Shown here: positions 33,217 through 47,497 of the stretch, piece by piece | How the letters are laid out: every line of letters begins with the position of its first letter | Position numbering within the stretch: position 1 is the stretch's first letter | Source of the DNA: a virus | Direction: 5' to 3' (one strand) | DNA: 64,000 nt | Virus record (IMG/VR): IMGVR_UViG_3300021247_000536 | Span: 115 to 64,114 of that record | The notes under the pieces: model-generated | The model's database searches: none | Told to the model about the DNA's origin: nothing | Seen by the model: only the letters and a program-made list of their open reading frames with translations | Position numbers and translations under genes: made by a program

Positions 33217-33289
33217 TCCCTTGTTAATTCAGAATTGACCTTCTGCTACATTGCCGAAGGTGTGACTCGATTGTCACACAAGGGAACTA
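33217..33289 (+). ncRNA. tRNA-like cloverleaf element D
   Basis: TCCCTTG/CAAGGGA acceptor, TGTGA/TCACA T-stem, two inner arms, then A-CTA. Confidence 0.7.
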
Positions 33290-36983: not shown

Positions 36984-37526
36984 ATGAAAACATTCACCAA
37001 AGATTTCATCCGAGAGAACTCAGGATGCTACAGACAACAGGGTATTGCAGTAATCAACGCTCTAGACTTCATGTCAGAACAGGGAGATGCTATTCCATAC
37101 ACATGGGTTCTTGAATCATCCATTCCGACAAAGGATAAATATTGGTTCTTCTGCAAGAAAGTATTCACCAAAGAACAAAATCAACAAGTAGCTATCGGAG
37201 TAGCATGGATCGTTCTCGAAATATTTGAGAACAAATACCCTAACGACGACCGACCACGCAAGGCTATCATTGCAGCGGAGCAATACCTTGAAGGACTGAT
37301 CGACCGTGAGACGCTTATGGAAGCGAGACGTAAAGCCGCCTACGCCGCCACAGCCGACGACGACGCCTACGTCGCCACAGCCGCCGCCTACGCCGCAGCC
37401 GACGACGCCGCCTACGTCGTCTACGTCGACGCCGCTGCCGTCGTCGACGCCGCTGCCGTCGCTGCCGTCGAGTACCACGAGGCTCTACTTCTATTTCTTA
37501 TCATGTTCTGTAACGAAAACCTATAA
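36984..37526 (+). CDS. Imm5-like domain protein with Ala/Tyr low-complexity tail
   Basis: FENKYPNDDRPRKAIIAAEQYLEG followed by AAYAA repeats. Confidence 0.65.
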   Translation: MKTFTKDFIRENSGCYRQQGIAVINALDFMSEQGDAIPYTWVLESSIPTKDKYWFFCKKVFTKEQNQQVAIGVAWIVLEIFENKYPNDDRPRKAIIAAEQYLEGLIDRETLMEARRKAAYAATADDDAYVATAAAYAAADDAAYVVYVDAAAVVDAAAVAAVEYHEALLLFLIMFCNENL

Positions 37527-40079: not shown

Positions 40080-40454
40080 ATGGACGTAAACGAACTAAAG
40101 ATTCACCGACGCAACAAGAAGAGAGAGTCGTCAAGAAAGAGACTGCTCAAGTCAACAACTCCAATGACCATCGGTCAGCAGATAGCACTCATCAGGAAAG
40201 CTAGGGGGCTGACAACGGCAAAGATCGAGGAGGACTTCGACATCTCAAGACATACCATCCGCAGCATAGAGTCAGACAAGGGGTCGTCATCTATCAACAA
40301 CCTCTTGGCATACGCTGCATCTCTTGGGTGCGTGGTAATTGTGTCGCCAATACCATCGGTAGGTATACACAAGCCTGAGACTTTCAGATCAAAGCCACAA
40401 GTAAATCCATTCGGTAAAACAAACACCATCAAGTTCGAAGAAGATGCAGACTAA
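40080..40454 (+). CDS. XRE-family HTH protein
   Basis: IGQQIALIRKARGLTTAKIEEDFDISRHTIRSIESDKGSSSINNLLAYAASLG. Confidence 0.85.
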   Translation: MDVNELKIHRRNKKRESSRKRLLKSTTPMTIGQQIALIRKARGLTTAKIEEDFDISRHTIRSIESDKGSSSINNLLAYAASLGCVVIVSPIPSVGIHKPETFRSKPQVNPFGKTNTIKFEEDAD

Positions 40455-40764
40455 CTTCTATAACAGCACAAACGAGACAGGCAAGACCCTCGAGAAATAT
40501 TCAGCGACGGCACTGTCACAACAGGAACGTATCTACAACTACATGAAAGATCATGAGGGTGTAGGGTTCTCTCCATCTCAGATACTGGCAGCGGTATTCA
40601 AAGGAGAGGGCGTTCCCATCACATCGGTACGAAGAGCTATGACTACGCTGTCATCAGATAGCAATAGCAGTTTAATATTCAAGACAGACATCAAGTACAT
40701 CGGACCAATGGGTAGACCCGAGTACACGTGGATGTATGCAAGAAACACTAGGGCTGATTCATGA
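40444..40764 (+). CDS. Winged-HTH DNA-binding protein
   Basis: QERIYNYMK...FSPSQI...PITSVRRAMTTLS...GRPEYTW. Confidence 0.7.
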   Translation: MQTNFYNSTNETGKTLEKYSATALSQQERIYNYMKDHEGVGFSPSQILAAVFKGEGVPITSVRRAMTTLSSDSNSSLIFKTDIKYIGPMGRPEYTWMYARNTRADS

Positions 40765-40902
40765 GAGGTGTGGGCGAACCTGCCTAACCTTAATAGGGGG
40801 TATCCTCCACACACGTGGCAATGTCTCATCGGCCTGAGCTTACGTTCATTGTAAAGAGACAAAAGGATATCAACAGGTGACAGCTTGGAGAGACAGGCAA
40901 CT

Positions 40903-40994
40903 GGTCAGTTGGCGTAAGTGGGAATGAATACCACAGCAGAGCAACGTCTCGTATTATGATACGAGGGATGCGGGTTCGAATCCCGTACTGGCCA
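40903..40994 (+). tRNA. Aberrant tRNA-like RNA (expanded D-arm, 6- or 8-nt anticodon loop, no encoded CCA)
   Basis: GGTCAGT/ACTGGCC acceptor; canonical GCGGG-TTCGAAT-CCCGT T-arm; CTCGT-ATTATGAT-ACGAG anticodon arm; followed by A-CTA. Confidence 0.7.
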
Positions 40995-41249
40995 CTAACT
41001 TAAAACAAAGACACATGACACCAGACAACGTATACATATACGAAGGCGATGAAGAATTTGACCCTATCGTTTATTTCACTTACTATTTGCTTTGTATCGA
41101 AGCGGAATTGAATGCCTCCAATAAACTTTTCAATAAAGTTCAGGACGTTAAATTAAAATTAACAGTGTATAACCCATAAACAACAACTATATCCTACAAG
41201 ATATAGCAATCCCGTAATCAACTAAATTATATCCTAAAGCATATAACCC

Positions 41250-45624: not shown

Positions 45625-45797
45625 GATACATAAAACTATACATCTTGATATCAGTAATGACCTATGTCATAGGCATGCTGACAATGATGAAGATGCCGTT
45701 CGAAGAGACGGTGCACAATCAGGTGGCATTTGCTGCCATACTTATCAACACATTCGTGGCAGTGGTGCTGGCGATAATCAAATGGAGGAAGCTATAA
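45621..45797 (+). CDS. Small 2-TM membrane protein
   Basis: MRYIKLYILISVMTYVIGML...AVVLAIIKWRKL read by hand; coupled to both neighbours. Confidence 0.6.
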   Translation: MRYIKLYILISVMTYVIGMLTMMKMPFEETVHNQVAFAAILINTFVAVVLAIIKWRKL

Positions 45798-47497
45798 TGT
45801 ACGACATCGATATCATCGGAGACAAGTTGATAATGAAGAAGGGGATATGGGATGAGCAGGAGCTTTTCCTAGCATCATGTCTGTGGTGGGATTACAATCC
45901 ATCGTCTGGACTTATCACTGCCGACTTGAGCTCTACACTTAAGAAGAGCGTCAAAGAGTTTCTTGGCGTAGCCTTCCCTACTTTCATGAACAACATAGCC
46001 TATGAGAGTGAGCGCAAGGCTTTGTCAAAGGATCTCAAGACAGTATACTCTGGCATTGAAGCTAAGACAGCAGCTATCGCTAGGACAAAGGTACCGTACT
46101 GGGACAAGATGTACGCTCACCAACGAGAGGCAGCTATTGCCATGTACTCTAGGCGTGTCACCTTCCTTGCATTTCAGCAGCGCGTAGGTAAGTCACTGAC
46201 CATGATGTCTCATTCTTTGATGACAAGCCGCCAGCGTACAGTCATCGTATGCATGGATGTAGGTAAGTGGAACTACATGAAGGACATGACATCCAAGACA
46301 TGGAACCAACCTGTTGAAGCGTTCTCTCCGTATGACTTCACGATCCTAGACAGTCAGAAGCGTAAGTGTGTACAGGCATTCCATGAGAAGTATGTTATCA
46401 TCAACTACGAGGCTATGCCAAAGTATTTCGACTACATTGTCGACGGCTCTGGCACGCTTACAGATCACATCGTATTCGATGAATGTCAGGCCATCAAGAA
46501 CACCACATCAGCCAGACACAGACTTGCCGACAAGTTAATTGACGCATGTCCAGACGCTAGGATAACACTCATGAGTGGAACTCCGGTGATGAACAGGCTA
46601 GATGACATGTTCGCCTACTTCAAGCTATCGAGACATCCTCTCGGAGCTAACAGAAAGAAGTTCGATGACATGTTCATTCGTCGATCATCAGGAAGGTACA
46701 GCAAGGTTGTTGGATCTAAGGACAGTGCCAAGCTATACTCTATGTCCTCCAACTTTATGATTCGCAAGAGACTAGATGAATGCTCTGACATCCCTGCCAA
46801 GTCACACGTCAAGATGTACTATCCTATCGGAGATTGGAAGGAGCAGTACATGACAGCGGTTCGAGAGGCTATCATGAATAAGGGTTCGAAGGTTAGAGAG
46901 TCGTCGATACATTCGATCAATAACATCATGGCTCAAGCCAAGATCCCCGGTACGTTTGACTTCATCAAGCAGCTTGTTGATCAGGATGAGAAGGTTGTTG
47001 TCTTCACCTCATACAGCGAGCCGCTGAATAAGATGGAGCAGCTACTCAAGGACAACAAAATACGCTACGTCCGTATCGATGGAAGCATAGACGGCAAGGA
47101 GAAGGTGGACCGAGCCTTTGCCTTCAATGAAAATCCTGAGATCATGGTGGCGATATGCAACATGAAGGCAGCGGGGCACTCTATCAACCTGTCAGCAGCT
47201 TCGTACATCAACGTCATCAACTACCCTCTATCTCCTATGGAGCTTGATCAAGCCATCTTCCGTACCGATACGGTGGACAAGAAGAACAAGACCACGGTGT
47301 ACTACTCGACATGTGTTGGTGACGATGGAGAGAACACGGTAGACATGAGACTTGCCGACCTCAACGAAAGCAAGGTCCATGATATCAACAACTTCGTAGA
47401 CAAGGGCAAGGATGTGGACGACATCCTCAACGCTACAGACGCAATCTATTCAGAAATCTTAAAGCAATACGGCAATGATAACAGTAAACAGGAATGA
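45797..47497 (+). CDS. SNF2-like helicase (divergent motifs)
   Basis: MYAHQRE Q-motif, QQRVGKS, VFDECQ, MSGTPVMN, KVVVFT, GHSINLSAA; start moved to ATG 45797. Confidence 0.85.
   Translation: MYDIDIIGDKLIMKKGIWDEQELFLASCLWWDYNPSSGLITADLSSTLKKSVKEFLGVAFPTFMNNIAYESERKALSKDLKTVYSGIEAKTAAIARTKVPYWDKMYAHQREAAIAMYSRRVTFLAFQQRVGKSLTMMSHSLMTSRQRTVIVCMDVGKWNYMKDMTSKTWNQPVEAFSPYDFTILDSQKRKCVQAFHEKYVIINYEAMPKYFDYIVDGSGTLTDHIVFDECQAIKNTTSARHRLADKLIDACPDARITLMSGTPVMNRLDDMFAYFKLSRHPLGANRKKFDDMFIRRSSGRYSKVVGSKDSAKLYSMSSNFMIRKRLDECSDIPAKSHVKMYYPIGDWKEQYMTAVREAIMNKGSKVRESSIHSINNIMAQAKIPGTFDFIKQLVDQDEKVVVFTSYSEPLNKMEQLLKDNKIRYVRIDGSIDGKEKVDRAFAFNENPEIMVAICNMKAAGHSINLSAASYINVINYPLSPMELDQAIFRTDTVDKKNKTTVYYSTCVGDDGENTVDMRLADLNESKVHDINNFVDKGKDVDDILNATDAIYSEILKQYGNDNSKQE

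Follow-up and report, generated by a model that had tools for sequence, protein, structure and literature searches.

In plant mitochondria, t-elements (Forner et al. 2007, PMC1920247) act as cis signals for cleavage by RNase P and for 3' processing, as do the tRNA-like 3' elements of MALAT1 and MEN-beta (PMC4919922). RNase P gauges the stack of the acceptor and T stems from the elbow, and any RNA with such a stack is cut (PMC4919913). The C4 antisense RNA of phages P1 and P7 is, as cited in PMC4919922, also an RNase P substrate (Hartmann et al. 1995), and RNase P also cuts one YrlA, whose acceptor has 7 bp and to which CCA is added (PMC4201824).

Here we describe a tRNA-like RNA from a freshwater phage and the RNA family to which it belongs. 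The window, meaning the whole 64,000-nucleotide stretch of DNA that was analyzed, covers nearly all of a 64.6-kb virus record estimated to be 92% complete. The TAnnTTTG promoter motif occurs 72 times in the window versus 40.5 expected, the gene starts are A rich and lack Shine-Dalgarno sites, and the BT4734-like primase of close relatives is 94% identical to that of the window; therefore, we infer a Bacteroidota host. RNase P RNA was detected in all five Bacteroidota genomes tried, and RNase Z scored above the cutoff in two of the five.

RESULTS

An intact acceptor and T arm with a hairpin in the D loop

The features of the element and of its surroundings are listed in Table 1. The initial annotation had described a tRNA with a canonical acceptor and T arm, and both were confirmed, with 7/7 acceptor pairs and a 5-bp T arm that is the sole perfect T arm in the window. 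The T loop matches the U54-U55-C56-R57-A58 tRNA pattern, completing a 12-bp acceptor-T stack with elbow nucleotides. U8 and G9 are present, A40994 is followed by CTA, and A-G at 40940-40941 replaces G18-G19 in this copy. The hairpin that had been proposed within the D loop was found in its expected place, and all four of its pairs show two-sided changes in the family. The anticodon arm had been said to close a loop of either 6 or 8 nt. The 6-nt reading, TTATGA at 40954-40959, stood and is closed by five pairs beyond C26-G44, whereas the 8-nt loop can be drawn only by sacrificing position 26 and opening an A-U pair. The element also precedes the ATG at 41015, as had been noted.

The fold z-score of the element was -2.1. 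Family model R1, which has the element itself in its training set, gave it 88.6 bits. ARAGORN called no tRNA at 40903-40994, Rfam returned nothing there at gathering score, and the tRNA-Sec model matched with 16.3 bits (E of 3.8) against a gathering score of 47. The only other R1 match above noise in the window was at 33218-33288, the element labeled D in the initial annotation, with 19.3 bits (E of 0.005).

Table 1. Coordinates of the tRNA-like element and of neighboring features in the window
Feature	Position	Strand	Remarks
106-aa gene, phrog_9069	40444..40764	+	Anchors the slot in relatives
Conserved multi-stem RNA	40764..40880	+	Predicted cut would define its 3' end; no Rfam match
Conserved hairpin, GAGAGA loop	40881..40899	+	Just 5' of the predicted cut; exchange boundary among relatives
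Predicted RNase P cut	between 40902 and 40903	+	Putative
tRNA-like RNA, D-loop-hairpin family	40903..40994	+	Predicted released form, +1 to base 73
Acceptor, 5' strand	40903..40909	+	7/7 pairs with 40987-40993; all 7 covary in the family
D arm	40912..40947	+	4-bp stem 40912-40915/40944-40947; 28-nt loop 40916-40943
Inserted hairpin	40918..40934	+	4-bp stem 40918-40921/40931-40934; 9-nt loop 40922-40930, consensus GAAURAAUA
Lower arm, shortened, not a working anticodon arm	40948..40965	+	6 pairs including C26-G44
Variable loop	40966-40969	+	Read from the sequence
T arm	40970..40986	+	5 bp, canonical T loop
Acceptor, 3' strand, with A73 and C74	40987..40995	+	No encoded CCA
A-rich leader and ATG of the next gene	40996..41017	+	Gene 41015-41179, 54 aa, differs among relatives

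Five other assemblies, which come from ENA, JGI, and Logan (L037, L038, L070, L072, and L076), carry the element without a single letter changed, and an indel error is therefore very unlikely. In L073 and L081, one-base stem variants leave the 6-nt loop unchanged and keep or improve pairing. The failure of ARAGORN, and of Rfam at gathering score, to recognize the element, together with vestigial anticodon-like loops that persist in a few members of the family, would fit an assembly error or a decaying tRNA pseudogene. However, the five identical assemblies, the pairing retained in both variants, and covariation across the whole family argue against these origins, which makes either exceedingly improbable. 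The vestigial loops suggest that the family probably descends from tRNAs.

A widespread family of phage RNAs

The RNA family is widespread in phages, well supported, and non-decoding. Members were collected by pattern scans of viral and metagenome contigs, which yielded at least 148 distinct sequences. The search patterns fixed the start of the D stem and, mostly, the hairpin loop, and the invariance of these parts is thus partly built in; one scan left the hairpin loop free, and another left the stem free. In an alignment of 42 members, 99.2% of cells were paired and two-sided changes were observed in 21 of 25 pairs. Covariation in this alignment far exceeded that of shuffled and slid controls and was present in all five helices, the D-loop hairpin included. 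With model R1, ordinary tRNAs scored 35 to 48 bits and family members 69 or more. Members were usually present as a single copy per locus.

Rfam holds no dedicated family, and members match RF00005 only, some of them above its gathering score. Neither an exact search of viral contigs for the 3' half of the element nor a protein-anchored search for the locus returned a match, and a cultured-phage collection gave T-arm matches only, none covering 80% of the element. The family pattern was not found in the 401 Bacteroidota genomes searched; among 401 Verrucomicrobiota genomes it was found in two, once in a prophage and once beside a HipA-like gene. An all-genome pattern scan had chance matches among the matches listed. 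No description of the family was found in a literature search, most subscription papers being outside its reach.

Several variant groups were observed. A GC-rich subgroup (L276 4423-4542, L149, L156, L111, and L458), mostly with a further D-loop arm, lies antisense to both neighbors, and its L276 member sits in a Verrucomicrobia prophage, between a portal-like and a protease-like gene. Branched members (L044, L047, L049, L055, L062, L098, L110, L118, and L454) carry a second conserved hairpin in the lower arm, with the loop AUAGYAU followed by UUAA and a faint likeness to the other 23S L1-stalk loop. In a further large group of tRNA-like phage RNAs (L003-L036), the acceptor and T arm hardly change but the interior varies widely, and most of these RNAs lack the GAAURAAUA hairpin; other D-loop hairpins occur in L008 and L012.

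The lower arm cannot decode

Frameshift-suppressor tRNAs of the +1 or quadruplet class (sufD type) have an anticodon arm one base longer than normal. The initial annotation had proposed that the element might be such a tRNA, and a decoder with an 8-nt loop reading CAUA finds some support in the drawable 5-bp stem and 8-nt loop, with U in the second and A in the seventh position, and in the intact tRNA core. However, an ordinary tRNA has 19 bases from position 26 to position 44 and a +1 suppressor needs 20, whereas the window copy has 18, one base short of normal, and no quadruplet is conserved in the family. An 8-nt loop could be read in only 10 of 148 members, which showed seven different quadruplets, and the would-be UAUG anticodon was confined to the allele group of the window element. 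No frame-switched gene was found between 34 and 51.6 kb in comparison with relatives without the element. Aminoacylation identity is also not conserved, with A (63), G (34), U (29), and C (20) as discriminators, 70 acceptor types, and no G3-U70; since discriminator and acceptor vary freely, amino acid identity is not kept. On this evidence, the proposal was not upheld, and we regard a working decoder as very improbable.

The loss of the anticodon arm extends across the family. Where the lower arm is unbranched and shorter than 19 bases, the distance from position 26 to position 44 ranges from 10 to 18 bases, most commonly 16. Four members have a 19-base arm with loops that lack U33, and 27 have a long, branched lower arm. 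Not one of 148 members has a canonical anticodon loop (7 nt on a 5-bp stem, with U33 and purine 37) in the conserved register, and nine have one in any register, with unrelated triplets. Positions 26 and 44 are paired in 143 of 146 parsed members. A role as an anticodon-nuclease decoy, also suggested previously, appears weak, as nothing is conserved in the anticodon loop of the family. These data show that the element is not a decoder.

ARAGORN calls members tRNA-Lys, -Glu, -Met, -Leu, -Tyr, or -Pyl (CUA), taking the linker after the hairpin for the anticodon; the member at L144 1607-1697 is among those mislabeled. Such labels could create false calls of stop-codon suppressor tRNAs.

Conservation of the top half, elbow, and 3' end

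The feature shared by the tRNA-like folds of the slot is the top half and not the anticodon. The acceptor is fully paired (7/7) in 141 of 148 members and the T stem (5/5) in 145, while U54-U55-C56-A58 is present in 147 and U48 in 142; the search patterns account in part for all four counts. The family also keeps U8-A14, A15-U48, and, in the linker of the D loop, a G. The G18-G19 position reads GG in 131 and AG in 13 of the 146 parsed members. C74 is present in 114 of 148 members (77%) and in 112 of 113 ordinary phage tRNAs of the same loci; only three members encode CCA.

Bacterial tRNA-Sec and tRNA-His have an 8-bp acceptor. In the family, bases -1 and 73 form a pair in 87 of 148 members versus 40 expected, a covariation absent from ordinary phage tRNAs, and many members may therefore have an 8-bp acceptor. 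Such -1:73 pairing could shift or slow cleavage by RNase P. The window copy has a U-1/A73 pair, but this pair is usual in ordinary phage tRNAs as well.

A near-invariant loop on a covarying stem

The stem of the D-loop hairpin occurs in 16 types, and the loop GAAURAAUA is near-invariant; the search in which the loop was left free returned the same loop. The hairpin was seen almost only within a tRNA-like body and appears to be an added conserved module that would stabilize the fold or bind a factor. No encoded protein partner was general to the family, the largest cluster of neighboring genes accompanying 18 of 148 members. No antisense target of the loop was found in the window or in an rRNA operon, and none was in excess in the family loci. 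The commonest hairpin matches the two strands of 23S rRNA helix 77 at 14 of 17 bases, a likeness that was noticed after the fact, has no helix 78 counterpart, and is equaled by 1.6-3.6% of random hairpins (P about 0.02-0.04). Helices 77 and 78 form the binding site of ribosomal protein L1. A likeness to the 16S 790 loop was dropped, as the pairing register differs. Mini elements, which are simpler, apparently serve the slot well enough, so that the invariance of the 9-nt loop cannot be put down to processing alone, and the hairpin may bind a host factor.

The element occupies an exchangeable slot between sense genes

The element lies among small sense genes, 3' of an HTH gene and the 106-aa gene and 20 nt ahead of the next ATG. 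The upstream multi-stem RNA has a three-way junction and perhaps also a pseudoknot of 4 bp (CAAT/ATTG in the window; CAAA/TTTG in L039 and L041), with copies at L069 6361-6480, L039 10316-10440, and L041 6316-6440 and three diverged versions. The hairpin that follows has a GARAGA loop, and 11 of its 14 distinct copies are succeeded by a tRNA-like acceptor within 4-13 nt. Copies outside the window were found in L034, L060, L085, L456, and L506-L510, and the hairpin may be a motif that generally accompanies tRNA-like elements in phages.

In relatives, what follows the 106-aa gene and the hairpin is the element itself, a short type of 63 nt, a long type with branches, or a tandem pair, as in L069, which has two elements in tandem. 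A homologous downstream gene follows either element type, and the same element precedes three unrelated genes; the downstream gene switches at the leader, and exchange begins exactly after the 40881 hairpin. An identical element was present in two lineages although their upstream genes are only 76% identical, which indicates exchange by recombination, and both lineages also carry the short type. The initial annotation had linked the element to the mini elements of the window, and this link gained support from L039, L041, and L042, in which the site of the window's mini element 38470 is taken by a family member. The 38470 site holds no element in several close relatives, and real tRNA-Met genes occupy similar slots in relatives.

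Across the family, members often lie a few bases after a stop codon and 12-25 bases before an ATG. An ATG open reading frame lies within 40 nt of 33 of 63 members, and 24 of 59 start within 40 nt of a stop. Among 97 members with both flanks, 71 are sense to both and six are antisense to both, and the latter suggest that the RNA of one subgroup or more acts in free form. No Bacteroidota -7 motif was found on the plus strand between 39446 and 41422, and no plus-strand terminator was found nearby; these absences, which are weak evidence, led us to infer cotranscription of the element with its neighbors.

Other differences were noted among the relatives. The variable block after the element holds differing cargo (L077 2792-3178 and L039 11957-12424), including an Lcl_C-domain gene and a CHAP-domain gene. 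An intein is present in the SNF2 helicase gene of L070 (8051-10864) and L072 (7158-9971), and the window copy of this gene (45782-47497) is intein free. Within the 180-aa gene at 36984-37526, the window has an Ala/Asp/Tyr-rich repeat with a 9-nt period (37334-37465), and relatives have a PF27050 gene of variable length nearby.

DISCUSSION

We consider it probable that the element is a cis-acting tRNA mimic that is cut by host RNase P within a long early transcript, releasing a non-decoding RNA. Within such an early or middle transcript, the mimic would fold into an L shape, with its intact 7-bp acceptor on the 5-bp T stem and elbow, and host RNase P would cut at 40902/40903. The cut would give the upstream structured RNA and the upstream mRNA a defined 3' end. 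The mimic might then remain as a paired, protective 5' end of the downstream mRNA; alternatively, it might be trimmed to C74, gain CCA, and be freed in uncharged form, about 95 nt long. The initial annotation had listed a processing signal among the possible roles, and slot exchange, the kept top half and elbow, and the tight placement between sense genes support it indirectly. Points against this reading are the antisense members, the element-less 38470 slots, the -1:73 pairing, the A-G in place of G18-G19, and the detection of RNase Z in only two of five Bacteroidota genomes.

The main job of the RNA might instead be performed in trans, by a stable, uncharged molecule whose hairpin binds and titrates a conserved host factor, e.g., L1 or a tRNA-sensing defense protein. 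This explanation is compatible with processing and moves the purpose from the cutting of mRNA to the small RNA. It would account for a near-invariant loop on a covarying stem that is found almost only in a tRNA-like body, for the antisense-oriented members, and for the retention of C74, and the lack of an encoded partner that travels with the element points to a partner in the host. The match of the commonest hairpin to both strands of helix 77 would also fit; however, it is post hoc, random hairpins match as well at the rate given above, and helix 78 has no counterpart. Moreover, close relatives swap the element for folds that lack the hairpin, and the loop might serve structure alone, as a docking motif. 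We regard a main role in trans as rather unlikely. A more specific form of it, in which a phage-wide class of free, CCA-tailed, non-decoding tRNA mimics would titrate or recruit a conserved host translation or defense factor through an invariant hairpin that binds protein and is displayed at the elbow, perhaps copied from helix 77 as the L1 site, seems to us distinctly unlikely.

The same exchange that supports a processing signal might be explained by largely neutral cassettes that are spread by recombination and tolerated through clean excision by the host, their flanks serving as exchange points of modules. The identical element in two lineages with 76% identical upstream genes, the short type in both, the start of exchange right after the 40881 hairpin, the L069 tandem, and the switch of the downstream gene at the leader are all consistent with such cassettes. 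Nevertheless, selection on the RNA is needed to account for the strong two-sided covariation and for a loop that stays invariant across many unrelated phages, members usually occur once per locus, and no mobility gene is linked to them. Neutrality is thus quite improbable, and processing by host RNase P remains the reading that we prefer.

The analysis shows that many odd phage "tRNAs," members of a family without an Rfam model, are not decoders. A single slot presents a natural series of a real tRNA, the mimic, branched mimics, and minis reduced to the top half, which could serve to test tRNA-style punctuation of phage mRNA, and the invariant hairpin points to a further interaction.

The element was compared with each of the known systems, and it could not be assigned to the tRNAs, suppressor tRNAs, tRNA-Sec, Y RNAs, or C4 RNAs. 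It resembles the canonical tRNA (RF00005) in its 7-bp acceptor, 4-bp D stem, U8-A14, A15-U48, T arm, and C74, but it lacks a 7-nt anticodon loop and a fixed amino acid identity, its lower arm is short, its D loop has 28 nt, and positions 26 and 44 are paired throughout most of the family. The covariation of base -1 with base 73 recalls tRNA-Sec and tRNA-His; unlike these, the element has no UCA or GUG anticodon and no long variable arm. Like YrlA and other bacterial Y RNAs, the element is a tRNA mimic without a working anticodon, but its genome (as noted, a record estimated to be 92% complete) has no Ro60/TROVE gene, and its parts stand in the non-permuted order of a tRNA. C4 RNA is, similarly, a phage RNA, and release from a longer transcript by host RNase P is predicted for the element as well; in contrast to C4, the element has no C4 match in Rfam, the complement of its loop is absent from the window, and this complement shows no excess in the family loci.

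The closest likeness is to the t-elements and the MALAT1 type, with which the element shares a non-canonical cloverleaf, an intact T arm and acceptor, and a position at RNA boundaries. As in t-elements, it would set the 3' end of the upstream RNA, and it lies in sense orientation between units that are probably cotranscribed. It differs from these eukaryotic RNAs in being a phage element with a conserved D-loop hairpin, in being exchanged as a unit, and in that its cleavage is a prediction. From this comparison, the element most likely works like a t-element or a mascRNA-type signal.
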